The notes under the pieces were generated by a model, which was not told the origin of the DNA, searched no databases, and saw only the letters and a program-made list of their open reading frames with translations. A DNA stretch of 42,406 bases, taken from the IMG/VR virus record IMGVR_UViG_3300020049_013145; one strand, written 5' to 3'. Shown here in pieces: positions 1-42,406 of this stretch (positions are counted from its first letter, which is position 1; each line of letters opens with the position of its first letter). The translations under genes and the position numbers were made by a program. Origin of the DNA: a virus.

Positions 1-121
1 CCTCTCAGCCAACAACGCACCACTCCTGGCCAAGGCTTTGTTGCGGGCTATGGAATCGCTAAAACGCACCCAGAACCGATTCTTAAATGAGGCACCAACA
101 GGCCTTCCTTTAGAGTCTAGA
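1..121. repeat. Terminal direct repeat, copy 1 (identical to 42286-42406)
   Basis: The first 121 nt (cctctcagccaacaacgcacc...tagagtctaga) are reproduced exactly as the last 121 nt of the window. Confidence 0.95.
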
Positions 122-205
122 GGACCTAGCCTCGCATGGGCAATGATGAGCGATTGTCGAAAGACGCTCGCCGACCTTGAGAAGCTGTTGGGAGGTGGGG
201 AGTGA
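1..205 (+). CDS. Ead/Ea22-like protein, C-terminal part (continuation of 42101-42406 across the contig junction)
   Basis: The reading frame from ATG 42101 runs off the end. After removing the 121-nt overlap it continues in frame from nt 122 to TGA 203-205. The tail ...LADLEKLLGGGE* is paralogous to 37140-37517. Confidence 0.8.
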   Translation, partial: LSANNAPLLAKALLRAMESLKRTQNRFLNEAPTGLPLESRGPSLAWAMMSDCRKTLADLEKLLGGGE

Positions 206-453
206 GTAAATCTGAAGAGCGCGGGGAGAAAATGTTATTAGCGTCTAAGCGAGCTGAATCTGACATAAAGCTTGCAATCGCGGATTCAAAAGAAGCGAGC
301 AAACGCCTATATCCGTATGAAGATACTCGCGGGAAAGATAAATACATTTCTTGTATTACAGGAATCGACGACGCCATAAAATATCTAACTAGAGCACAAG
401 AAATGATTCAAAGCGCGTTAACTCTGCTTCGCAAATCGAGAGAAGAAGAATGA
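202..453 (+). CDS. Hypothetical small protein (83 aa)
   Basis: ORF track. GTG start overlaps the upstream stop (GTGA). The stop overlaps the next ATG (ATGA). Confidence 0.65.
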   Translation: MSKSEERGEKMLLASKRAESDIKLAIADSKEASKRLYPYEDTRGKDKYISCITGIDDAIKYLTRAQEMIQSALTLLRKSREEE

Positions 454-710
454 AATCCCCTAAAGAACTGGCGCAAGAGGTGTTGGGAGGATTTAAATCC
501 TGCGACTTTTCTTACGATATAAAAGTATATATTATCGCCTCTGCAATGCTGAAGCTGGAGGAGGAGAAGGAGCTTCTCGTTGAAGCAATCACTAAAGTAA
601 AACGCACCGAGATCACTCATGGTTGCGAGGAGTGCTCGTCCATCTGGACAAACGTCTACGAGTTTCCTGCGTTGACTGAAGCACTCTCCAAAGTGACGGG
701 TGAGAAATGA
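450..710 (+). CDS. Hypothetical protein, member of the MK[ST]P[KR]ELAQEV / ...ALSKVTGEK paralog family
   Basis: ATGA coupling at both ends. The C-terminal 54 aa (LKLEEEKELLVEAITKVKRTEITHGCEECSSIWTNVYEFP...SKVTGEK) are near-identical to 38229-38555. Confidence 0.75.
   Translation: MKSPKELAQEVLGGFKSCDFSYDIKVYIIASAMLKLEEEKELLVEAITKVKRTEITHGCEECSSIWTNVYEFPALTEALSKVTGEK
548..710 (+). repeat. Dispersed direct repeat, 163 bp (partner 38393-38555)
   Basis: Hand alignment gives 142/163 identical positions, including a 26-nt perfect run (tccatctggacaaacgtctacgagtt). Confidence 0.85.
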
Positions 711-2640: not shown

Positions 2641-2841
2641 ATGAAAATATTGATAGCACTTTCCACACTTCTCTTGTCTGCATGCGCGACTACACAATAC
2701 AAAGGGCACCCAGAGTGTGCGCCTTCACCAAGTCTTTGCTGGCATGACTTTAGAGACCCAGTGACTGATAAGTTTTGTACGACAAAATCAGTCGACCGTG
2801 TGGATGAACATGAGATCAGAATGGAGTTCTTTTGTCAGTGA
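2641..2841 (+). CDS. Small lipoprotein (66 aa)
   Basis: Signal peptide with lipobox (MKILIALSTLLLSAC). AGAGGA lies upstream of the ATG. Four further Cys residues. Confidence 0.7.
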   Translation: MKILIALSTLLLSACATTQYKGHPECAPSPSLCWHDFRDPVTDKFCTTKSVDRVDEHEIRMEFFCQ

Positions 2842-5322: not shown

Positions 5323-7185
5323 TTAAGCTATTTTATCAAACCTAAGAACTGCATAGTAGTTATCAAGACCCACATTGTTGTTTGCTACGCCTAATCCAGA
5401 TCCACCAATGGCGTTTGCACACCAGTATTGAAGCTCGAAAGTTTTTGACCCTGCTATAACAATAACTCCTTGCATAGTAGCCGTTACTTGATCTCCGCCA
5501 GCGACGTTTGGACCATAAGAATCGGTCCCACCTTCACAAGCAACAGCCGCATCTGTTGTGTTGTAGAGCCTAATCTTCCCACTAGAGGTTAGATAAAAAA
5601 CAGAGCTTGCCTCAACGATATAAGTTCCAGCAGATAGAGTAACTTGATTGGATGAGAGTGTTCCAAAAGATTGAAGAGATGATGTCTCGTTTATAGTTAA
5701 ATCATGTCTCGTCCATGTCGTTGCTGCAGAGTTTCCACCATTCACGTTGTAGGCTTTCTTATCTTTAAAGATTGCAGGAACAAGAGCAGCTGGAACAGCC
5801 CAGGTGCCATTAGCCTTTAAGAACTTACCAGCCGCAGTATCACCGCTTGCAGGAGCAGGAGCTAATCCCTTGGTTCCACCAGAACCAGAATCACCAACCA
5901 TTGCATTTAGGATCGCAGTTGTTTGAGTGGCGGTTAAATCTGTAGGAGTAGCAGACCCACCAGTGTTGTTGCCCTTAATCGTCATCGTTGCCATCGTTGC
6001 AAGCTGGGCATTGATGATTGGTGAGATGATGCCAAAATCTACAGCAGTCCAGATGTCTGGTGTTGGATCCGTATCGGCAATAAGCTGAACACCACTTGTT
6101 GCAATGGATAAGGTTTTACTCGTTGCCCCATCAATCGTATCAGTGCTTGATCGGTTGATCGTGACCGAATTTGATCCTGTCTCAAGCTTTACGCCAACAA
6201 CAAATGGGAGAGTTAAGGTTGAGATCTGAGGGAGTGTGATGACGATTGCACCACTTGTCGTATCGCATACTAAGAGTTTACCGTTGTCAGAAGAGGTAAC
6301 AGCACGAGGAGAGCTTGCTGATGTCAGGAACACAACGTCCCGCCAAAGAGCTGAAGCCAAAGTAGCAGCTGCAGCTGCAGCTGAGGCCGCTGCATCTACG
6401 GCATACTTCTTTGCAGAGTACTCCGTATTGTCAACTATTCCGCCAGTGTAGTTTGCCCAGTCTTTAGATGATCCACCGTTTGCAAGTCCACGACGCTGAA
6501 CACCTACGGCATATTCTTTAGAAGAGTATTCTGATCCATCAACTGTAGTTGAGGTTTCAGTAGCCCAGTCTTCAGCCAGTGCTTCAGATGCTGCCGCTGC
6601 TACTGCTGAGGCTTGTGCTGAGATCGCTGAGGCTTGCGCAGTGGCCACTTCATCAAAGGTAGGTCCTACGGCAAAGCCATCGCCATCAGCATTAGTACCA
6701 ATGACAACGCTTTCAGCACCAATAAGTTCTGAAGGAAGACTTGTGTCAAAGCTTGAGGGGTCAATCGTTTCAGAGAGCTTCATCGAACGATCGATCTCAT
6801 CTTGCTGCTGTTGAGCCATCATGGTGAGAGCGTCGAACCCATCTTCGTGGATCTCTGGAAAGAACGGACCTTGGTTCCTGATGTCTGCTTCTTGGATAAG
6901 GGGAAGCACGCGTCTTATGGTAAGGTGATAGCCAGTCTTAAGATCGCCATCAACATCAAGCCAAGCCTGGCCTGAGTTAACGAACACGATTGTGCCACCC
7001 GTGTTGCTACCAACTCCTGTTACCGTGTAATCTACATCGACAGTAAGCAGAGTCTCAACATCATCTAAATCTTTTACCGTAACCTTTAGATCGGTCTTTG
7101 CAAAAATTCTAAACGTGTAGTTGTAGGTATCAACAGCACCGTTGCCGGTGAGATCAACTCGGTTGGTTGTCGAAGATATGGTCAT
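5323..7185 (-). CDS. Tail fiber / receptor-binding protein (620 aa)
   Basis: Last structural gene. Ala/Ser-rich coiled segment with repeated (E/K)YS(S/A)K(E/K)YA motifs typical of podovirus fibers. Gly-rich beta C-terminus. Confidence 0.75.
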   Translation of the reverse strand: MTISSTTNRVDLTGNGAVDTYNYTFRIFAKTDLKVTVKDLDDVETLLTVDVDYTVTGVGSNTGGTIVFVNSGQAWLDVDGDLKTGYHLTIRRVLPLIQEADIRNQGPFFPEIHEDGFDALTMMAQQQQDEIDRSMKLSETIDPSSFDTSLPSELIGAESVVIGTNADGDGFAVGPTFDEVATAQASAISAQASAVAAAASEALAEDWATETSTTVDGSEYSSKEYAVGVQRRGLANGGSSKDWANYTGGIVDNTEYSAKKYAVDAAASAAAAAATLASALWRDVVFLTSASSPRAVTSSDNGKLLVCDTTSGAIVITLPQISTLTLPFVVGVKLETGSNSVTINRSSTDTIDGATSKTLSIATSGVQLIADTDPTPDIWTAVDFGIISPIINAQLATMATMTIKGNNTGGSATPTDLTATQTTAILNAMVGDSGSGGTKGLAPAPASGDTAAGKFLKANGTWAVPAALVPAIFKDKKAYNVNGGNSAATTWTRHDLTINETSSLQSFGTLSSNQVTLSAGTYIVEASSVFYLTSSGKIRLYNTTDAAVACEGGTDSYGPNVAGGDQVTATMQGVIVIAGSKTFELQYWCANAIGGSGLGVANNNVGLDNYYAVLRFDKIA

Positions 7186-7243
7186 TAGTTCTCTCCTGCA
7201 GTCACTAGTGTAATGCGTTGATTATGCTTTGCCATCTTAAAAC

Positions 7244-10200
7244 TCATTGAGAAGATCCTGGTTTTCCAGTTATTAGGCCACGCGTAAAATCAACTGGCCC
7301 ACTAGGATCTGCTTTTCCTTCCGACACATCAGACAGGTAACCAATTGGTCTGGCAAGAGGTGAGAGCGGAAGCCCTGTTGCAAGACTTAATGCGGTGAGT
7401 AGATCTCGTGCCGCCTTCTTCTTACTCCCGTCTTCAACGATTGCATTGTAGACAGAGCTCGGTGCTTTGACCGCACTCTCAATCATCGAGACCGCTGGTG
7501 AGGTTGAGATTCGATCGTCATACCATTTGTCGTTAAATGAGTTGATGCCAGCTTGCACCGTTGGGCCAACCACTGGGAATAGAGCGGTTGCTGATCTGAA
7601 TTGCCCTAAGAAGAAAGTTGACATCAAGTCATCTAAGTACTCGTCGTCATCGTCACTATCTAAGGATCCGCTCATGCTTCGAACAATGAGCTCGCCAACA
7701 ACTGCTGGGACCATAAAGCCAAACGTATAGAGGTAGAGCGCACGCCCTGCGCCCTTCTTTAAACCCATGTCGCGTGCAACCTTAATGAACTCAGTGCCAA
7801 GAAGGTTTGCCTGCATATTGAAGTAGGAATAGAACTGTGTGAATGCACGAACAAATGGAGTGCCTGTCTCAAAGCGAGACACGTCTTCAGGACTTAAAGA
7901 TCCTTGAGTCTGCCTCACAGTTGAGTCCGCCTCTTTTACAGCTTCCTTCTCAGTCTCCCCATTCTCTACAGCCTGATCATATGCTCCTGACCACACAACC
8001 GTATCGATCAGATTCTGAGACGCAGTCTGCAAAAAGTATCCATGCTTCTTTCCAAAGTCTCTGGCCTTCTCGTACTTCGTTGGATTAAGCAGTAGTTCGT
8101 CAATCGTTTGATTGATCTCAGAGGCTGAAGCATCCATTCTATTTCGCATGAACTCAGACTTGTCTTTCACGTCATCTGAGTACTTCTTTGGCGCTTTCAT
8201 ATATGACCAAAGAGAGTCTCTTAAGTATTTAGGTTTGACCTTTGTCGCTGCAATCGACAGACCTGTGACGTTTTGAAGCGTGTTCACCACGTTTGCCGTC
8301 ATGACTGCTAATCCAGTCCTGGCTCTAATCTCTTTAAAGAAAGTATCTAGCGCACGTCCTCCCCACCCATTTGATGGAGTAGAGATCTTCTGCTGAGCTG
8401 CACGCTGAAGCCATGGCACAAGCATATCACCGCCAACAGTTGGGTCAAAGGCATCGAGCGTTCGTCTAAAGCCACGGTCCATCACAAGCCTTGCCACTTC
8501 TTTTACGTGTGGTTCGATCTCTGAGAACCTAAGAACCTTATCAAGCTGCATTGGCACAAGCTTTAGATCCATCACAAGAGGCGCGGCATAGGCGTCCACC
8601 CGAGACTTCGTGAATCCACGACCTGCAGTTGGAAACATAAAGCTATTGTTTGATTTCTCAATAGACTCTTTCTCGTTTCTAATTGCTGCGTCTTGAGAAA
8701 GAAACGAGTCAACAGTGGCTGGTGCGTATCCGCCACGGTAGTTACCAAACGGCGTCTTTACCTCTTGGGCCGTGACCTCGTTAAAGTATCTGCCATACAT
8801 CTGCTTATGTGCTTTTTGGGCAGCGGGCTTTGTCTCTTCAAATAGATCCCAAAGCCCTTGAAGAACGTCATAGTCCTTCTTCGTCAGCACACCTTCGTTC
8901 CACATGCGGGTAACAAAGGCATCCCAGCGAGCGGTATTCAATGCGCCAGTTGAGTCAATCTCTCCCCACTGTCTTCCACGAAGTAGCTTTGATAGGTTAC
9001 TCTCGTTACCTGTGTGGAGCATTGCACCTAATAGTTCAGCCTTACTTCCAAACTCGTAGTTTAGTTCTGGAGATAGGATCTTCTTAGGGCCAAGGTCTTT
9101 CTCAATGGGCTTGATCACGTCTAGGAACTTCTTAAGATAGCCCTTCTTTACTTCACGAAACCTAGTTGCAGCTTCAGAGATTGGGTTAAAGATAATGTCC
9201 TTAAAGTCATTACTGCTATCGCCATCCATTGCACTGGCCCAGCTCTCAACGCGCCTTAACGAGGCCCTAACACCAAGAAGACCCATCTTTGTCTTATCCC
9301 AGGTTGTTGCTGCCTTATCGTATTTACCCTTCTCTTTGAGCTCTGTGATTTGAGACAAGCGCTCTTCAAGCTTAGCCTTTGCCTCATCTCGGTCCATCAT
9401 CTTGCCATCGACTTCGATCTGCTTTGTAGTACGCGCCAAGCTCCAGATGCTTTCAATCGCATCGCTTAAGTTTACGAAGTCATCGTATGATAATTGATTA
9501 TAATCTGAAGTGGGTTGCGCGTTGCTTACGACAGAGTCAACGATTGCAGACACCGTCTCGTATGTCTCAGGATCATAGCGCTTTATCTGATCAAGGTATT
9601 CGGATACTGGCTTATCTTTCTTGCCAACTCCGTACTCAGCAAGGATTGCACGAGCAGCATTTACAAGATCAATGTCACGAGACTTTGCAATAGCCTCATC
9701 TGCGCGACTAAGCTTCTTCCACTTATCCACCTCAATCTCTACATGCTCTTGCGCTTCTACAGCTGCACGATAGAGTTCGTGGTTTAGAAGCTCTTTTCTC
9801 TTGGCATCAAACGCACCTTCGATATCGCCCTTGGCAAGAAGCTGACCAGCGGTCTTTGCATACTTTGCCTCAGCTCTTTGGAATACATGTGGGCTTAAGT
9901 TCTTTACTTCGCGCCTTGCAATAATGCCACGCGCCTGATCGCGTACAGCCTTCTCGGTCGGCACGCGCCGTGAGACCTTGCGGATAGCGTCTTTGAGTAC
10001 TGGCATATTATTCGATGCCAAGTGCTCAAGCTCAAGTCTTAAGACCTGCGATCGCTTCTCATTGTGAATGGCTTTCATCGTTTCTTCAGGAAGCTTTCCG
10101 TCAGTTAAGAGATCGGGATAGAGTTCGGCCATACGCCTTGTTGCTTCAGCTTCGATGAAATCTTCTTTGGCAGGAGCTGCAGCTAATTGCTGTAGCATTG

Positions 10201-35974: not shown

Positions 35975-36714
<740 letters not shown>

Positions 36715-36718
<4 letters not shown>

Positions 36719-37143
36719 GTTACGCAGAAAAAACCTCAGTCCCCATTGACCGATCACAGTCTGAGATAAAGAAGATCCTATCCAAATACGGAGCCAACGG
36801 TTTCGCCTATGCGGAGAATGATCAGTTTGCCATGGTGATGTTTGAGATGTCGTCTAGGCGCGTAAAGTTTTTACTGCCAATGCCGCCAAAATATTCATCT
36901 AAGGCTACGCAAGCATCAATCAAAACTTATGAACAACTTTGTCGAACACGATGGAGGTGTCTCGCCCTTGCAATCAAAGCCAAACTAGAATGTGTAGAAT
37001 CTGGAATCACCACGCTCGAGCAGGAATTTATGGCTCATATCATGCTGCCAAATGGGCAGACAGTGGGCCAAGCAATGGGTCCACAAATCGAGCAGTCTTA
37101 TAGAGATAATAAGATGCCGCATTTGCTTGGGTATTCTGGATGA
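36715..37143 (+). CDS. Hypothetical protein (142 aa)
   Basis: GTGA overlap upstream, ATGA downstream. Confidence 0.7.
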
Positions 37144-37517
37144 AATCTCTACAACAGACCTGCAACGAGATTATCGAGGCGAGTGAGAAGGCAACATACG
37201 GACCGTGGCAGTTGAATACGAGCATCGATTGTAGACGCGGAACGGTCCATCAAAGCGAAGGTCATTCGACTATATGCGGGTATGAACCAGATGCAGGCTG
37301 GGCAAAAACCGCCAGTGGGAACAAGCCTAACTTTGAGTACATCGTCCTCGCCGCCAACCAAGCGCCGAAGCTAGCGAAGGCGTTGCTGGTGATGGAGGAA
37401 GCTTTGCTATTAATTTCTGAGACGACTACGAATAAGGGGTTCGCAACAGGAGTCGATCAATCTATTGCAAAAGAAGCGCTCGCCGAAGCCGAGAAGCTAT
37501 TGGGAGGTGGGGAGTGA
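37140..37517 (+). CDS. Ead/Ea22-like protein (125 aa)
   Basis: EASEKATYGPWQL resembles the KATPGPW motif of Ead/Ea22-like proteins. Paralog of the junction-spanning gene 42101->205, with the same ...EKLLGGGE* end. Confidence 0.7.
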   Translation: MKSLQQTCNEIIEASEKATYGPWQLNTSIDCRRGTVHQSEGHSTICGYEPDAGWAKTASGNKPNFEYIVLAANQAPKLAKALLVMEEALLLISETTTNKGFATGVDQSIAKEALAEAEKLLGGGE

Positions 37518-37723
37518 GCAAGTCTAAATACGTAAGATTAAAAGACCTAAAGAAGCTGATGGAGCAATATCCAGATGCTATTTTATCTTACCCAGTAGAT
37601 CAAAGTAAATTTGAGTACAGTGACCGATTAGCTGGTGAGTTTAGTGATGAACTTGTAGAAATGCATCCAGATAACGTTGGTCCGGGTAATCCAAAATACC
37701 GCCATATTGTGAGGCTCAAATGA
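37514..37723 (+). CDS. Hypothetical protein (69 aa)
   Basis: GTGAGCAAGTCT start. Same junction as 202-453, but the interior is unrelated. Confidence 0.6.
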   Translation: MSKSKYVRLKDLKKLMEQYPDAILSYPVDQSKFEYSDRLAGEFSDELVEMHPDNVGPGNPKYRHIVRLK

Positions 37724-38052
37724 AAACCCCTAAAGAGCTGGCGCAAGAGGTGTTGGATCTTCGATCGAGGGCTGATCAGTATGACGTCGACTCGTATGAG
37801 TGGGACGATCTTATGCAAGCCTCAGAGGATATCCTTTTAAACGATGGGGATACCCTCGCCCGCGCCGTGCTGAAGCTTGAGGAGGAGCGTGAACAGCATT
37901 ACAGGGCTCACTCGGAAGCCGTGGATCTAATATTGAAACTCACAGATGAGAAAACGATCATGGTGTCATCACTAAATAAAATTGCCGGGTACATGGGAGA
38001 TGACGCGCAAGATGAAGCCGAAAAAGCCCTCTCCAAAATAGGTGGAAAATGA
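37720..38052 (+). CDS. Hypothetical protein, MKTPKELAQEV family (110 aa)
   Basis: Shares the 5' 37 nt with 450-710 (2 mismatches) and the LKLEEE segment. Ends ALSKIGGK*. Confidence 0.65.
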   Translation: MKTPKELAQEVLDLRSRADQYDVDSYEWDDLMQASEDILLNDGDTLARAVLKLEEEREQHYRAHSEAVDLILKLTDEKTIMVSSLNKIAGYMGDDAQDEAEKALSKIGGK

Positions 38053-38195
38053 CTCACATTTTTAAACGCGGCTCCGTAACTATCGAACTACTATGTCATC
38101 CAACTATGGATCGATATTTTGAATGGATTAATAATGCGTACGTGCGCGGTCCTTCGTATGAGCAATTGATTCTAGATGGGTGGGCTAAGCAATGA
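38049..38195 (+). CDS. Possible 48-aa protein
   Basis: Below the ORF-track cutoff. ATGA overlaps at both ends keep the coupling chain intact. Confidence 0.4.
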   Translation: MTHIFKRGSVTIELLCHPTMDRYFEWINNAYVRGPSYEQLILDGWAKQ

Positions 38196-38236
38196 AATCC
38201 CCTAGAGAGTTGGCGCAAGAGGTGCAGCATGAGTAA
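38192..38236 (+). pseudogene. Truncated 14-codon remnant of the MKSP[KR]ELAQEV gene start
   Basis: atgaaatcccctagagagttggcgcaagaggtg matches 450-482 with 3 mismatches, then stops (TAA 38234-38236), overlapping the ATG at 38229. Confidence 0.55.
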
Positions 38237-38555
38237 CGAATTTAAAGCCATATGGCTACACGCAGATGCGCGTTTAATTGGCAAAACAGCGGATAGCCTA
38301 AGGACACTTCTAGCTGCGCTTACTCAGTCTGGGATAGACACTGCACACGTTACAGTGACTTGTCCTGATGTCCAAGAATTAGAAAAACGAGTGCTGAAGC
38401 TTGAGGAGGAGAAAGAAATTCTCATTGAAGCGATCACTAAAGTAAACCGCACCGAGATAACTCATGGTTGCGAGGAATGCTCATCCATCTGGACAAACGT
38501 CTACGAGTTCCCTCCTCTTGCGGAAGCCCTATCCAAAGTGACGGGGCAGAAATGA
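38229..38555 (+). CDS. Hypothetical protein (108 aa), C-terminal paralog of 450-710
   Basis: The C-terminal half is LKLEEEKEILIEAITKVNRTEITHGCEECSSIWTNVYEFPPLAEALSKVTGQK. Confidence 0.7.
   Translation: MSNEFKAIWLHADARLIGKTADSLRTLLAALTQSGIDTAHVTVTCPDVQELEKRVLKLEEEKEILIEAITKVNRTEITHGCEECSSIWTNVYEFPPLAEALSKVTGQK
38393..38555 (+). repeat. Dispersed direct repeat, 163 bp (partner 548-710)
   Basis: 142/163 identical by hand alignment. Confidence 0.85.
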
Positions 38556-38971
38556 GAACAACACCACACAATTGTGGCGGTATTGGTTGCGATACTTGCG
38601 CCAGTGATCGGGTATTCAATCAGCAGTCAAAGCAAGTGGACGAGGACACCTTCACTTACCCACGTAGCGCAATAGACGCACGAATAGTAGAAGTTGAAAC
38701 GCTACGCGCCGAGCGAGACAAATGGAAATGGGAATACGAAAACCTTTGCCATTTCGCCTGGCATCTCGCCAATGATTTTGAAGAGCAAGTGGTTGAGTTG
38801 AAAAAAGAGAAGGCGGTGTTGGTTGAGTTGAAAAAAGAGAAGGCGGTGTTGGTTGAGGCAATAGAATACATCAGCCATGATTGCATGCATTCTCATGCAA
38901 ACTGTCCAACTAGAGCCGCAATGCAAGTAATAGCAAAGAAAGCACTCTCCAAAGTGACGGGGGAGAAATGA
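38552..38971 (+). CDS. Hypothetical Cys/His-rich protein (139 aa), same family tail (ALSKVTGEK)
   Basis: Start at ATG 38552 (ATGA overlap). Contains CGGIGCDTC and HDCMHSHANC. Carries the in-frame 30-bp tandem duplication. Confidence 0.65.
   Translation: MRTTPHNCGGIGCDTCASDRVFNQQSKQVDEDTFTYPRSAIDARIVEVETLRAERDKWKWEYENLCHFAWHLANDFEEQVVELKKEKAVLVELKKEKAVLVEAIEYISHDCMHSHANCPTRAAMQVIAKKALSKVTGEK
38791..38857 (+). repeat. Perfect 30-bp tandem duplication plus 7 nt of a third unit
   Basis: ggttgagttgaaaaaagagaaggcggtgtt occurs at 38791-38820 and again at 38821-38850, followed by ggttgag. It encodes VELKKEKAVL twice. Confidence 0.95.
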
Positions 38972-39138
38972 AAGACGCAACACACGCATTCTGTTCAGAG
39001 TGTAACCGTATTCGGAAATGTGTTTTTGAGCCTCTAACCGCAGAGTCAATAGACGGCAAATATCTCGGCGGAGACATCGTTTGTGAATGCAAGCTTGTCG
39101 TTGCGACTCTTTTTAGAGAAGTGGCTGGTGAGAAATGA
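38968..39138 (+). CDS. 56-aa Cys-rich (zinc-ribbon-like) protein
   Basis: Below the ORF-track cutoff. ATGA overlaps at both ends. Contains CSEC...C...CEC. Ends ...EVAGEK*. Confidence 0.5.
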   Translation: MKDATHAFCSECNRIRKCVFEPLTAESIDGKYLGGDIVCECKLVVATLFREVAGEK

Positions 39139-39380
39139 AGTTCAGAAGAAAACCAATAGTCATAGAAGCATTCCGATGGATGCACGACGAAGCCCCCGAT
39201 TGGTGGATATCCGCCAGATACACGATGATTGACGCTGAATTTGGATCAGTATTTATTTCAACTTTAGAAGGCACCCATGAGGCAAAGCGCGGCGATTGGA
39301 TTATTAAAGGGATAAAGGGCGAGCTCTACCCATGCAAGCCGGACATTTTTGAAGCTACTTACGAGGCTGTGGATGAATAA
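39135..39380 (+). CDS. Hypothetical protein (81 aa)
   Basis: ORF track, ATGA-coupled. Confidence 0.65.
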   Translation: MKFRRKPIVIEAFRWMHDEAPDWWISARYTMIDAEFGSVFISTLEGTHEAKRGDWIIKGIKGELYPCKPDIFEATYEAVDE

Positions 39381-39705
39381 GTTCTGGATTTCTGGCTGGG
39401 ATCCCAAAGGCTACCCTTTAGGAGAAGGCATAATTACTGTGTTCGTCACGAAAGAAGATCCTCGGCAGCCTTATGCATTCGAGGTAATCCCAGTAAAAGA
39501 CGCATTTGAAGAGGCCGCGCAAGAGGTTCAGGGATGGATCGATCTTAGAAATAAAGATCATGCGATGTGTGATTACGTTGATCCAAAAGAAGCCGAACGA
39601 GAACACGGAAATCTAATTCGACAGCTAGAATGCATCAAGGATAGATTATTGGAAAAATCTGGGATCGAAAGAATTAAACTCTTTAGAGATAGAATAAAGA
39701 AATGA
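39373..39705 (+). CDS. Hypothetical protein (110 aa)
   Basis: ATG 39373 overlaps the upstream stop region by 8 nt. The ORF-track start at 39349 is less likely. Confidence 0.6.
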   Translation: MNKFWISGWDPKGYPLGEGIITVFVTKEDPRQPYAFEVIPVKDAFEEAAQEVQGWIDLRNKDHAMCDYVDPKEAEREHGNLIRQLECIKDRLLEKSGIERIKLFRDRIKK

Positions 39706-39983
39706 ACTGCCCAATCCTTGGATGCTCAATTATAGGGCTACACACCCATGATCCATTAGTCTTCAAGTCTATTTCATGCCAATATAGTTGTCCGGAATGG
39801 AGAGATGCTTATGAAGCGGGAGCAAAAGAGGTTAGAGACAATCTCAAAGATATTCACATAGTCCCGGAATTCGAGGGAGAACCAACTCACGCAGAGACCG
39901 AGAGGTGTTGGTGCACCCCCGAACTACACTACCAAGATGAGTTTACGGATATAAAAGTTTGGACGCATCGGAGACCAGAATGA
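39702..39983 (+). CDS. Hypothetical Cys-rich protein (93 aa)
   Basis: ORF track, ATGA-coupled. Contains a CWC motif. Confidence 0.6.
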   Translation: MNCPILGCSIIGLHTHDPLVFKSISCQYSCPEWRDAYEAGAKEVRDNLKDIHIVPEFEGEPTHAETERCWCTPELHYQDEFTDIKVWTHRRPE

Positions 39984-40107: not shown

Positions 40108-40251
40108 ATGGAGAACTTTTTAAAAGAATTGAAAGAAGAAAATGTAATGACCCCAGATGAAGTACTAGATCAAGCATCCAAGGATGCACACAAAGAAGCA
40201 TTCACCGCAACGATCAGCATTGCAAGGCAGTCTGAAGTAGCTTTCTCCTAG
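40108..40251 (+). CDS. Possible 47-aa protein
   Basis: Small ORF whose stop overlaps the stop of the convergent ATPase gene. Weak evidence. Confidence 0.25.
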   Translation: MENFLKELKEENVMTPDEVLDQASKDAHKEAFTATISIARQSEVAFS

Positions 40252-41333
40252 AAGCTCTCAAACGTAGACTCTTCTTGAGTAGGAAGAGTTTCTGCCTGTG
40301 AAGTAAGGCCAAGCTTTTGCTTTATGATCTGAAGCTTCTCTGTGATGGTTTCAAGATCAAGGCTTTCGATATAGGTTTTAGATGCTTTGCCAAACACCTC
40401 ATCAAGAAGAGCTATGCGTTTTTCTTTCGCATCCTTACTCGTTCCATCCACCTGACCCTTGATCAAAAGATTCTGAAGATCTTCAAGCGCTATAGTCTTA
40501 AGCCTTTCACGCTCAGCCCATGACCGATCAGAGCTTTTGATTAGGTTCTCTGAGTTACGAGTAAGGTCAGTGCCTATGTGGTCACCACCAAGGTTTAGGA
40601 ACTTGACTACGGAAATGAAGTTTTGGAATTTAGGTTTATCAAAGATTTTGCCATTGATCGTATCTGATCTGTCTTTGATGACGACACACCGATTTAAAAA
40701 ACCTTTGGCACTCTTCTTTGATTTCCTATCGGTCAACACTTCAGCAATATTAACCTTATATGTCTCGATGAGAAGATCTGGCTCAAAGCCTGTCTCGCCT
40801 TCGGCCTTCATTTTAGTGCCGGATTTTACAATCTCTTTCTTTCCTTCTTCATCTTCATCAAAGTCATACTCATAACCAGCACGTCCACACATTGCGATGT
40901 GAACCTTTGAGTTGACATAGGCTTGAGTGAACTGAGCCCACTCAGACTTAAGCACAACCCAGTCTTTCATTGAGAGCTGACTCTTTCCTTTTTTCTTCAT
41001 GTAGGCATTGGTGAGTTCTCGCCACACATGTGTGATCGAATCAATAATGAGGAAGCTATATCCCTCAGTTTCGCACTCTTTAATAACTGTGATTAGGTCC
41101 ATAAAGGACTTGCTCTTAATCACATGGAGCTCAACGCCAGCGTCTTTGAAACGCTTGATATGGAAGTCAGATCCCTTCTCTGTATCGAAGAACGCTACTT
41201 TGCTACCAGACACAAGCTTTGTAAGCTCTTTAGCAAAGTCACAGGCAAGATGGGTTTTGCCCGAACCTTCAAATCCTTGTAACCCGACTTTAAGATAAGC
41301 CGTTTGATTCACTGCTGGTTTCAATAGACCCAT
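40248..41333 (-). CDS. RecA-like AAA ATPase (Sak4 / AAA_24-type) with a C-terminal extension
   Basis: Walker A GFEGSGKT, FFDTEKG motif, Walker B FLIIDSITH. Confidence 0.7.
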   Translation of the reverse strand: MGLLKPAVNQTAYLKVGLQGFEGSGKTHLACDFAKELTKLVSGSKVAFFDTEKGSDFHIKRFKDAGVELHVIKSKSFMDLITVIKECETEGYSFLIIDSITHVWRELTNAYMKKKGKSQLSMKDWVVLKSEWAQFTQAYVNSKVHIAMCGRAGYEYDFDEDEEGKKEIVKSGTKMKAEGETGFEPDLLIETYKVNIAEVLTDRKSKKSAKGFLNRCVVIKDRSDTINGKIFDKPKFQNFISVVKFLNLGGDHIGTDLTRNSENLIKSSDRSWAERERLKTIALEDLQNLLIKGQVDGTSKDAKEKRIALLDEVFGKASKTYIESLDLETITEKLQIIKQKLGLTSQAETLPTQEESTFESF

Positions 41334-41661: not shown

Positions 41662-41907
41662 ATGAGCCTTCTCAAAGGGGGAAGATCCGTGAAGTGTAAG
41701 AAGAAGCCTGAAAATCCATTGTTCCAAAAAAGAAAAAGAAAAAAACCAGTAAGCTTTATGTTGTCTCCAAAATCTATAGAGCTAGTTACTCTTGCAAGTA
41801 AAGAGTACGGGGTCTCAAAGTCTGAGGTCATTGAGTCATGTATCAAGCACACACTCAAAGAGTTGTTTAAGGATGTGACCAATGGAGATGAGGGTAAGGG
41901 GAAGTGA
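41662..41907 (+). CDS. Ribbon-helix-helix (CopG/Arc-like) DNA-binding protein with a basic N-terminal tail
   Basis: VSFMLSPKSIELVTLASKEYGVSKSEVIESCIKH fits a beta-strand/helix/helix pattern. Confidence 0.6.
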   Translation: MSLLKGGRSVKCKKKPENPLFQKRKRKKPVSFMLSPKSIELVTLASKEYGVSKSEVIESCIKHTLKELFKDVTNGDEGKGK

Positions 41908-42104
41908 GCAAAGAATATCCAGCAAGAGTAAGTGCATTAGTGCAAAAGAGAAAACTCATAGGGGAATACGCCTACAATACCGCAATGCAGATCGAGCAGC
42001 TAGTAGACAAAATAAGAGAAGATAGTGAGCTCACCGAAATTTGCCTCAATGAGATTGAAGAAAAAACAATTGGACTTCGAGTGTTTCTCCAGGAGTTTCC
42101 ATGA
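41904..42104 (+). CDS. Hypothetical protein (66 aa)
   Basis: GTGAGCAAAG start overlapping the upstream stop. ATGA overlap downstream. Confidence 0.6.
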   Translation: MSKEYPARVSALVQKRKLIGEYAYNTAMQIEQLVDKIREDSELTEICLNEIEEKTIGLRVFLQEFP

Positions 42105-42406
42105 CCAACCTAGAGCGATTATGCAAAGAAGTGCTCGAGGCGAGCGAGAAGGCTACGGAAGCGGGTAAATATTGGACTACTAAATATGGCAATGCAGTTC
42201 AAAGCAAAGAAGAGACAATATGTGTTCTGAATGATGGAGAATATATTGAAAATCCAAATCGCGAATCGGATGCAGCATATATCATCCTCTCAGCCAACAA
42301 CGCACCACTCCTGGCCAAGGCTTTGTTGCGGGCTATGGAATCGCTAAAACGCACCCAGAACCGATTCTTAAATGAGGCACCAACAGGCCTTCCTTTAGAG
42401 TCTAGA
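42101..42406 (+). CDS. Ead/Ea22-like protein, N-terminal part (continues at nt 122 after the junction)
   Basis: ATG 42101 (ATGA overlap). 102 codons run to the window end with no stop. EASEKATEAGKYW parallels EASEKATYGPWQL of 37140-37517. Confidence 0.8.
   Translation, partial: MTNLERLCKEVLEASEKATEAGKYWTTKYGNAVQSKEETICVLNDGEYIENPNRESDAAYIILSANNAPLLAKALLRAMESLKRTQNRFLNEAPTGLPLESR
42286..42406. repeat. Terminal direct repeat, copy 2 (identical to 1-121)
   Basis: Exact 121-nt match read directly. Confidence 0.95.

Follow-up and report, generated by a model that had tools for sequence, protein, structure and literature searches.

The cluster of small early genes described here, from an uncultured phage, has probably been reshaped by short-homology recombination at conserved gene ends, a form of the known boundary-sequence mosaicism that would call for no dedicated cassette system. 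The window, by which we mean the whole 42,406-nt stretch of DNA that was analysed, was compared with the one relative found in all collections searched, the 14.7-kb Logan contig L001 (from SRR14751627), and the comparative sample therefore consists of three arrays (two in the window, one in L001). Blocks of conserved sequence, three different cargos, chimeric genes, jumps in GC content and an excess of identical codons were observed directly. First, short sequences conserved at the DNA level are situated at gene boundaries. Second, unrelated genes lie between the same boundaries in the three arrays. Third, breakpoints of similarity fall in the blocks, with one further breakpoint (L001 7327) in the middle of a gene. 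The earlier note on this DNA had proposed that the junctions are recombination boundaries for cassette exchange; the switch points, the cargo, the GC content and the codons speak for this proposal, whereas the identity of the blocks as coding termini and the mid-gene breakpoints speak against it.

The first 121 nt of the window are identical to its last 121 nt by self-BLASTN. Because positions 1-121 repeat 42286-42406, the contig is circular and the array running from 42101 to 710 is unbroken; the window evidently represents a circular tailed-phage contig of ~42.3 kb. Its plus-strand early operon is made up of small genes chained by 4-nt ATGA/GTGA stop/start overlaps, and G-rich ribosome-binding sites accompanied by such overlaps are a general feature of the operon. 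The order Ea-like gene, J1, ORF, J2, family gene and J3-type end is present in two copies, as had been claimed for a three-gene array at 42101 to 710 and at 37140 to 38052, the first of which is contiguous by circularity. The features of the locus are as follows.

41904-42104, plus strand: gene U (66 aa), upstream of array 1; homologue of the 65-aa gene upstream of the L001 array
42101-42406, plus strand: Ea-like copy 1 (129 aa), crossing the circular junction and ending at window position 205
1-205, plus strand: 3' part of Ea-like copy 1, with the terminus EKLLGGGE and stop within J1
179-213, plus strand: J1 copy 1, comprising the Ea-like gene end, a ribosome-binding site and a GTGA stop/start overlap
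202-453, plus strand: cargo ORF X (83 aa, GTG start), an orphan with a GC content of 41.6%
450-710, plus strand: A1 (86 aa), a chimera, with J2 at 450-482, a putative crossover block at 547-569 and J3 at 686-710
37140-37517, plus strand: Ea-like copy 2 (125 aa), part of which is similar to L001
37491-37525, plus strand: J1 copy 2, located by motif search
37514-37723, plus strand: cargo ORF Y (69 aa, GTG start), unrelated to X and to Z of L001, with a GC content of 38.5%
37720-38052, plus strand: A2 (110 aa), with J2 at 37720-37752, LKLEEE at 37867-37887 and a degenerate J3 end (ALSKIGGK and stop)
38049-38195, plus strand: 48-aa ORF between A2 and the J2 stump, with ATGA coupling on either side
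38192-38236, plus strand: J2 copy 3, a 14-codon stump (MKSPRELAQEVQHE and stop) in the +1 frame relative to A3
38229-38555, plus strand: A3 (108 aa), with LKLEEE at 38391-38411 and a 168-nt, 87% repeat in common with A1 that ends in J3 at 38531-38555
38552-38971, plus strand: A4 (139 aa), with its J3 end at 38947-38971
38968-39138, plus strand: A5 (56 aa), a possible fifth member of family A, with a TH.C.EC motif and the end VAGEK and stop
40248-41333, minus strand: Sak4-related AAA_24 ATPase between the two arrays, a candidate phage annealase/recombinase

That three short sequences recur at gene boundaries was confirmed at the coordinates first reported for them. J1 occurs twice (179-213 and 37491-37525, with 3 differences in 35 nt), J2 three times (450-482, 37720-37752 and 38192-38224) and J3 three times (687-710, 38532-38555 and 38948-38971), and in 100 dinucleotide shuffles none of them had a match. 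When the early region was compared with itself by BLASTN, the J1, J2 and J3 blocks came up again, together with the 168-nt repeat (38392-38559 against 547-714, 87%). A fourth short block, GTGCTGAAGCTTGAGGAGGAG (VLKLEEE), is 100% identical between 37867-37887 and 38391-38411 and 95% identical at 547-566. These patches of 20-55 nt are nearly identical in DNA, and the sequence between them is unrelated. A weaker J1 had also been placed at 41885-41915, where no match was found with up to 3 mismatches allowed; this segment is a G-rich ribosome-binding site plus GTGAGCAA, a combination common to several GTG-start junctions. As for the weak J3 versions, that at 38029-38052 is recognisable at the peptide level only (ALSKIGGK), and that at 39117-39138 corresponds to a BLASTN match of merely 20 nt (E = 0.44).

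What are these blocks? J1 consists of the 3' coding end of the Ea-like genes together with the ribosome-binding site and GTG start that serve the gene after it. J2 corresponds to the opening 11 codons of family A, and J3 to its closing 8-9 codons, along with the ribosome-binding site and ATG for the gene that comes next. The blocks are coding termini of two paralogous gene families, and the idea that they are boundary elements in their own right has to be abandoned. The ribosome-binding site and the overlapping stop/start account for the last ~12 nt of J1 and J3. At positions specifying the same amino acid, the J blocks have identical codons above the codon-usage expectation: in an example pair, 9 of 10 J2 codons are identical against 3.9 expected (P = 0.0007), and in another example pair the figures for J3 are 8 of 9 against 3.0 (P = 0.0007). 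Each pair provides 8-10 codons, and for some pairs the excess is not significant. Outside J1, the Ea-like genes of the window have about half of their codons identical at identical residues, so that the 7 of 8 in J1 is only marginally special within the window. The J peptides may be functionally constrained as well.

The genes that end in J1 are an orphan pair and not detectably Ead/Ea22. In lambdoid phages, the Ead/Ea22-like proteins are small accessory proteins of the early region; the Ea-like proteins are likewise small, and the earlier note pointed out a motif, YI[VI]L[AS]AN.AP.LAKALL. For the three Ea-like proteins (two from the window and one from L001), Pfam at E <= 10 gave 0 families; PHROGs gave 0 matches and NCBIfam chance-level matches only. 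The Ead/Ea22-like label of the earlier note is thus not borne out by these profiles, and the name should be avoided. An AlphaFold2 model of the Ea-like protein is poor (pLDDT 56), with three helices and the middle unmodelled.

Family A, in which the elements MK[ST]P[KR]ELA[QE]EV, LKLEEEK and ALSKVTG[EQ]K are conserved in this order, is an orphan family of 4-5 proteins predicted to be helical; the AlphaFold2 model of A1, also poor (pLDDT 63), has four helices. In an exhaustive HMMER profile search of 1.84 billion representative proteins, the six query proteins alone were recovered, on two contigs. Members of the family diverge so much that an alignment of five of them could not seed a scan for similar loci. 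Because family A and its partners are orphans confined to these two contigs, no function could be learned from them. A5 matches A1 by BLASTP (E = 0.005) and was not recovered by the profile search. In the J2 stump, 7 extra nt relative to A1 separate J2 from the common TTTAAA (FK) codons. A4 contains a perfect 30-nt tandem duplication (38790-38857), which indicates a recent rearrangement in the array.

In A1, similarity switches from one partner to another. Positions 449-546 are 84% identical to L001 7705-7802 and 25% identical to A3; the 23 nt at 547-569 are 91% identical to both; and positions 570-710 are 86.5% identical to A3 (38415-38555) and 28% identical to L001. On these alignments, A1 is a clean chimera, with a 5' part that matches the other phage, a 3' part that matches 38229-38555 and the switch in the 23-nt block common to all three.

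The L001 array has the order Ea-like gene, J1, the unrelated 68-aa ORF Z, J2, family gene and J3-like end. The gene upstream of it is collinear with gene U over the full length (BLASTP E = 1e-6). X and Y, the ORFs between J1 and J2 in the two window copies, show no BLASTP similarity (best E = 1.8), in line with the earlier description of them as unrelated, and among X, Y and Z, which differ in length, there is no pairwise BLASTP similarity in the three arrays. Each of them begins precisely at the GTG of J1 and extends as far as the ATGA at J2. The check that had been suggested, a search in relatives for other cargo between the same junctions, was thus positive in L001, a single relative with a third unrelated ORF. 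The GC content of Y lies below the window's 5th percentile, between flanks of 49-53%. In the L001 Ea-like gene, the 5' half has a GC content of 37.4% and the 3' half 54.1%, against a median of 41% and a 95th percentile of 48.3% for L001, and the jump coincides with breakpoints.

In the word-indexed protein search, the Ea-like query alone reached L001; the A3 and A1 queries led to the window's own proteins only. No relative was found among GenBank phages by BLASTN of 36700-39400 or when A3, X, Z and the Ea-like gene were used as tblastn queries, and ORF Y gave marginal tblastn matches there (E about 0.1). IMG/VR, the JGI metagenomes and the GTDB genomes likewise contained no relative. The sole metagenome match to a degenerate J2 pattern, in contig L002, was rejected as a chance match inside an unrelated 275-aa membrane protein.

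Could the arrays have arisen with no exchange at all? An old segmental duplication of the three-gene unit might have diverged unevenly, with the middle ORFs drifting and the J blocks held by selection on termini, ribosome-binding and coupling signals. The Ea-like copies are about 40-41% identical in amino acid sequence, which makes the duplication old, and the J-type ends are graded from near-identical to degenerate (A2, A5, L001 8020-8274); both observations agree with such a history, as does the generality of the ribosome-binding sites and 4-nt overlaps in the operon. However, it leaves unexplained the GC discontinuities, the chimeric make-up of both A1 and the L001 array, the surplus of identical synonymous codons, and the fact that Ea-like copy 2 is nearer to the other phage's gene (61% amino acid identity) than to its own paralog; nor does drift fit well with three middle ORFs of unequal length without any similarity. 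We consider this explanation very unlikely.

The points at which DNA similarity between L001 and the window begins or ends are only a few nt away from J1, J2, the LKLEEE block and J3, with segment ends at L001 7507, 7705 and 7825. L001 7327-7507 matches 37338-37518 of array 2 at 87%, and the match stops 2 nt past the stop codon. A second match, at 85%, pairs L001 7705-7825 with 449-569 of array 1 and begins 1 nt ahead of the ATG. By these matches L001 is chimeric relative to the window, with similarity to array 2 and then to array 1. The breakpoint at L001 7327 falls within the Ea-like gene, where a conserved motif starts. Since breakpoints are present inside genes too (L001 7327; window 547-569), exchange was not restricted to the junctions.

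Random illegitimate joints followed by selection could also leave survivors at gene boundaries, in which case the J blocks would be the edges of homologous flanks and would have no causal part. Most phage mosaic joints are generally explained in this way, according to the discussion of mosaicism in PMC3029335, and the mid-gene breakpoint at 7327 is what it would allow. Moreover, in each of the three arrays the genes on either side of the cargo slot are homologous, so that homology is bound to end where genes end, which suits random joining as well. Yet similarity peaks at the boundaries and does not decay towards them: the last 53 nt of the 37338-37518 alignment, a run ending at J1, are identical to L001, and a perfect run of this length within a 181-nt alignment with 24 mismatches has P = 0.003 by simulation. 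The 21-nt LKLEEE block is 100% identical in A2 and A3, with unalignable flanks, and the partner switch of A1 within a block 91% identical to both partners is predicted by homologous crossing-over, not by random joining. Illegitimate recombination therefore appears to us rather unlikely as the source of these joints.

Under the short-homology reading that we favour, patches nearly identical in DNA would have served as crossover points for homeologous recombination of the annealase type, whether the partners were paralogous arrays in the same genome or belonged to co-infecting phages. The outcome would be replacement of the ORF between two patches, or of one half of a gene of family A. Only products jointed at gene ends or in conserved blocks would survive selection for an unbroken reading frame and for coupling; the ATGA/GTGA overlap is kept at every junction, and the suggestion that exchange preserves translational coupling agrees with this. 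We infer that the crossovers took place within the blocks, and likewise the enzyme behind them: the phage's own Sak4-related ATPase could catalyse such exchanges. The 361-aa product of its gene (40248-41333) has a Walker A motif and matches the AAA_24/Sak4 profile PF13479 (E = 6.5e-15; 55.9 bits, where the cut-off is 27). Among the PHROGs it matches phrog_124, 'Sak4-like ssDNA annealing protein', at 2e-16 and the top entry, phrog_1366, of unknown function, at 7e-50; on these profiles it is a candidate Sak4 protein. Phage recombinases have been reported to recombine diverged sequences efficiently (PMC2327257, PMC3945230, PMC5928155), and in homeologous recombination (lambda Red, Rad52-like, Sak4) annealases join short, diverged sequences and leave mosaics with moderately similar flanks. 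The likeness of the window to Sak4 systems lies in this profile-defined AAA_24 protein.

A further comparison is with the PeSLs (promoter-early stem-loops) of T4-type phages, at which recombination shuffles, deletes and replaces small ORFs (Arbiol et al. 2010, PMC2839356; Comeau et al. 2014, PMC4122927). In both cases, repeated short motifs surround small non-essential ORFs of unassigned function in hyperplastic early regions, and the small ORFs bracketed by J blocks in the variable early region have no assigned function. PeSLs, however, are intergenic and consist of a sigma-70 promoter and a terminator stem-loop, whereas the J blocks are made up of coding sequence together with ribosome-binding sites and overlapping stop/start codons. 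No site resembling a promoter or terminator was found at any J block, counts of such sites equalling the shuffle expectation, and the genes overlap by 4 nt, so that we reject the identification of the J blocks as PeSLs. Long-range J1-J2 RNA pairing that loops out the cargo was likewise rejected (summed pair probabilities 0.05-0.2, with partners inconsistent across the three arrays).

Might the J blocks nevertheless be a dedicated device, maintained to promote swapping as a coding-embedded analogue of T4-type PeSLs or integron attC, perhaps with a specific enzyme? The same blocks surround different cargo in two otherwise unrelated phages, and the J2 stump is kept at 91% identity though it no longer heads a long protein. 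Against this, no motif like a promoter or terminator coincides with the blocks, J1 and J2 are not predicted to pair, each block is an ordinary coding end of a paralogous family, some breakpoints lie elsewhere than at the junctions, and the confinement of family A to two contigs gives no sign of a widespread system. Such a device is the most doubtful of the explanations considered. There is only a slender chance, too, that the blocks form a maintained, coding-embedded exchange architecture, in which termini doubling as ribosome-binding and coupling signals would stay nearly identical and let any small ORF flanked by them swap in frame, from array to array and across unrelated co-infecting phages; if true, this would be a translationally coupled counterpart of the T4 PeSLs, driving fast turnover of anti-host accessory genes. 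On the present observations, the blocks may simply be used by recombination and not be maintained for it.

The locus is a clean but ordinary example of phage mosaicism, and with one relative only it remains an illustration and not a new principle. It bears on an old question, whether phage mosaic joints come from illegitimate joining at random or from homologous exchange at short conserved sequences, for the second of which clear examples are few. Several such cases are found here in 2 kb: three alternative ORFs in one slot, a two-partner chimeric gene and a GC jump. The locus would also be a compact test system in which short-homology exchange by a Sak4-type recombinase could be measured. Its nearest counterparts are the boundary ('linker') sequences at the module junctions of lambdoid phages (Susskind and Botstein; Clark et al., HK620), which, as summarised in PMC3029335, are short, DNA-conserved boundary sequences with different genes between them, and for which homologous recombination has been proposed. 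Unlike those linkers, so far as that summary describes them, the conserved parts in the window are the coding termini of two paralogous orphan families in a coupled operon, and both arrays are in one genome; the window phage is not lambdoid by any test made in this analysis. A case that can be set directly beside the J3 ends of adjacent family-A genes, on the account given in PMC3029335, is that of mycobacteriophage Island3 genes 67 and 68 against Brujita (Pope et al. 2011), neighbours with ~18 C-terminal residues and ~50 bp in common. There the gene between the repeats is present in one phage only, and the authors invoked general recombination at short boundary sequences. As presented in that account, the Island3 case is one insertion or deletion, whereas the window combines several block types (J1, J2, LKLEEE and J3) with three cargos and chimeric genes.

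The recurrent junction sequences J1, J2 and J3 are the ends of coding sequences from two sets of paralogous genes, which we call the Ea-like genes and family A. J1 comprises the 3′ end of an Ea-like gene, a ribosome-binding site and the GTG start of the next gene, while J2 and J3 correspond to the first 11 and the last 8-9 codons of family A. These elements form array 1 (42101->710, across the circular junction) and array 2 (37140->38052).

Junction sequences and genes of the two arrays and their surroundings
179-213 and 37491-37525, plus strand: J1, two copies
450, 37720 and 38192 (starts), plus strand: J2, three copies
710, 38555 and 38971 (ends), plus strand: J3, three copies
42101->205, plus strand: Ea-like copy 1, 129 aa
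37140-37517, plus strand: Ea-like copy 2, 125 aa
202-453, plus strand: cargo ORF X, between J1 and J2 of array 1
37514-37723, plus strand: cargo ORF Y, between J1 and J2 of array 2
450-710, plus strand: A1, family A
37720-38052, plus strand: A2, family A
38229-38555, plus strand: A3, family A, with a 14-codon J2 stump in front (38192-38236)
38552-38971, plus strand: A4, family A
38968-39138, plus strand: A5, possible family-A member (BLASTP to A1, E = 0.005)
40248-41333, minus strand: AAA_24 ATPase, Sak4-related, 361 aa, between the two arrays

All three motifs occur at the positions claimed in the earlier note, none gave a match in 100 dinucleotide shuffles, and self-BLASTN of the early region retrieved the same blocks. 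The additional weaker J1 proposed at 41885-41915 proved to be just a ribosome-binding site plus GTGAGCAA, a product of GTGAGY starts following G-rich ribosome-binding sites; the weak J3 copies can be recognised mainly as peptides. Self-BLASTN also revealed a 168-nt repeat (38392-38559 and 547-714, 87%), of which J3 is the end, and three copies of a 21-nt block, GTGCTGAAGCTTGAGGAGGAG (VLKLEEE): those at 37867-37887 and 38391-38411 are identical, and the one at 547-566 has 95% identity.

The arrays lie in the early operon, a plus-strand chain of small genes at ~36715-39983 and then between 41904 and 1436, spanning the junction, nearly all linked by 4-nt ATGA/GTGA stop/start overlaps with G-rich ribosome-binding sites before them. 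Because the minus strand encodes a terminase, a portal-type adaptor, a major head protein and tail proteins, the window belongs to a tailed phage. Self-BLASTN found an exact 121-nt terminal overlap (1-121 and 42286-42406), so the contig either was assembled as a circle, with 42,285 unique bases, or is terminally redundant; the gene at 42101->205 is cut in two by the window ends. The GTG-start genes of the overlap chain (window 36715, 37514, 41904 and 202; 7503 in the related contig L001) all open with GTGAGY (Val-Ser), each preceded by a G-rich ribosome-binding site, a uniformity that the GTGA overlap in part forces. Directly upstream of Ea-like copy 2, a 142-aa gene (36715-37143) matches phrog_17260 (unknown function) at 2e-48; its neighbours are orphans.

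Both families are themselves orphans. The two Ea-like copies share 41% identity over their full length, and the label 'Ead/Ea22-like' given to them earlier is not supported, since none of the three Ea-like proteins, including that of L001, matched a Pfam (even at E <= 10), PHROG or NCBIfam model. For family A, a profile search with HMMER, run exhaustively over 1.84 billion representative proteins, recovered nothing beyond the six query proteins. Its members run from MK[ST]P[KR]ELA[QE]EV through a coiled-coil-like LKLEEEK and a variable Cys/His stretch to ALSKVTG[EQ]K; AlphaFold2 models of A1 and of an Ea-like protein are helical and of low confidence (pLDDT 63 and 56, respectively). Relative to A1, 7 additional nt separate the J2 of the stump from the common TTTAAA (FK) codons (38192-38240), so that a stop codon arises and a new ATG overlaps it (ATGAGTAA). 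The stump and A3 are best read as a full-length member that looks to have been split by a small frameshifting indel, with putative reinitiation at the overlapping ATG. A4 contains a perfect 30-nt tandem duplication (38790-38857, 2.3 copies, 100% identity, repeating the peptide VELKKEKAVL), which shows recent rearrangement within the array and resembles the outcome of slippage or unequal exchange in the very recent past.

No relative was found among GenBank phages, in IMG/VR, or in the JGI metagenomes and GTDB genomes; the lone metagenome match was rejected as a chance hit. With Ea-like copy 2 as query, a word-indexed protein search turned up one relative (50% identity), on L001, a 14.7-kb Logan contig from SRR14751627. 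L001 is a different phage: its primase, SNF2 helicase, PD-(D/E)XK nuclease, Enc34-type SSB and DNA polymerase A have no window counterpart, and the overlap is limited to a few small early genes in the same order. Two further collinear pairs are L001 8274-8410 with window 39847-39983 (C-terminal part of a 93-aa protein) and L001 9344-9544 with window 2641-2841 (a small lipoprotein). The L001 array opens with a homologue of the gene at window 41904-42104 (E = 1e-6), after which come an Ea-like gene, J1, ORF Z (68 aa), J2, a 105-aa family-A gene with a J3-like end and a second, more divergent family-A gene. X, Y and Z each begin precisely at the J1 GTG, extend precisely to the J2 ATGA, and show no similarity in any pairwise comparison. 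Therefore, among three arrays in total, including that of one relative, a single J1-J2 slot holds three unrelated ORFs, and the outcome foreseen by the first check in the earlier note, different cargo between the same junctions in a related genome, is borne out by Z.

Where does similarity switch? In BLASTN comparisons, L001 7327-7507 matches window 37338-37518 (87%), beginning within the Ea-like gene and ending 2 nt past its stop codon; L001 7705-7825 matches window 449-569 (85%), beginning 1 nt before the J2 ATG and ending in the LKLEEE block; and L001 7992-8027 matches window 38940-38975, that is, J3. Thus, the Ea-like gene of L001 resembles that of array 2 and its family-A gene that of array 1. 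As the following comparison shows, A1 is itself a clean chimera.

Identity of A1 segments to L001 and to A3
449-546: L001 84%, A3 25%
547-569: L001 91%, A3 91%
570-710: L001 28%, A3 86.5%

Furthermore, L001 and array 2 are identical over the final 53 nt through the end of J1, with 24 mismatches in 181 positions overall (P = 0.003, simulation). Random illegitimate joining followed by selection would also place joints at gene boundaries; on the three arrays available, we regard it as unlikely, in that it predicts neither this peak of identity at the boundary nor a partner switch inside a block common to both partners.

Base composition agrees with the chimera picture. In the L001 Ea-like gene (7084-7507), GC steps from 37.4% in the 5′ half to 54.1% in the 3′ half exactly where similarity to the window starts (L001 median 41%, 95th percentile 48.3%), which suggests that DNA was acquired fairly recently from a phage of higher GC. 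The three cargos have 38.5-41.6% GC against 46-53% in the window flanks, and Y falls under the window's 5th percentile. Pure divergence following an old duplication is distinctly improbable, because it leaves unaccounted for these GC jumps, the chimeras and the fact that Ea-like copy 2 stands nearer to its L001 counterpart than to copy 1.

Within J blocks, identical codons at same-residue positions exceed codon-usage expectation (for example 9 of 10 codons vs 3.9 expected and 8 of 9 vs 3.0, each P about 0.0007); other pairs of sequences give weaker excesses. Outside J1, about half of the codons at identical residues in the window's Ea-like genes are also identical, so that J1 is only marginally special within the window and has its strongest support in the comparison with L001. 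Part of the conservation of J1 and J3 arises because their last ~12 nt are a ribosome-binding site with overlapping stop/start, the same at unrelated junctions of the operon, and the terminal peptides of the J blocks may be under functional constraint.

The most economical reading is that homologous exchange would occur at short near-identical patches (20-55 nt) that coincide with gene ends and with a single conserved coiled-coil segment, and that its products would then be filtered by selection preserving reading frames and translational coupling; such filtering would explain why ATGA/GTGA overlaps are retained at every joint. Phage recombinases (Red, Rad52-like proteins and Sak4) reportedly recombine short and diverged sequences and add to mosaicism (PMC2327257, PMC3945230, PMC5928155), and the window's AAA_24 ATPase, which matches phrog_1366 (unknown function, 7e-50) ahead of the Sak4-like phrog_124 (2e-16), might be the agent of these exchanges. 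A dedicated cassette device is very improbable: it has no specific support, neither promoter nor terminator signals were found in the J blocks, no pairing between J1 and J2 is predicted, breakpoints also fall within genes, and the families are limited to two contigs.

The locus fits the route to mosaicism through short conserved boundary sequences, which was proposed for lambdoid phages and is exemplified by mycobacteriophage Island3, whose genes 67 and 68 have ~50 bp of C-terminal coding sequence in common (PMC3029335). It would also shuffle small early ORFs much as the T4-type PeSLs do (PMC2839356, PMC4122927), but its repeats are coding, whereas PeSLs are promoter-terminator cassettes, a definition that the locus fails. 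The locus therefore belongs to a known kind of mosaicism, here built from orphan genes.
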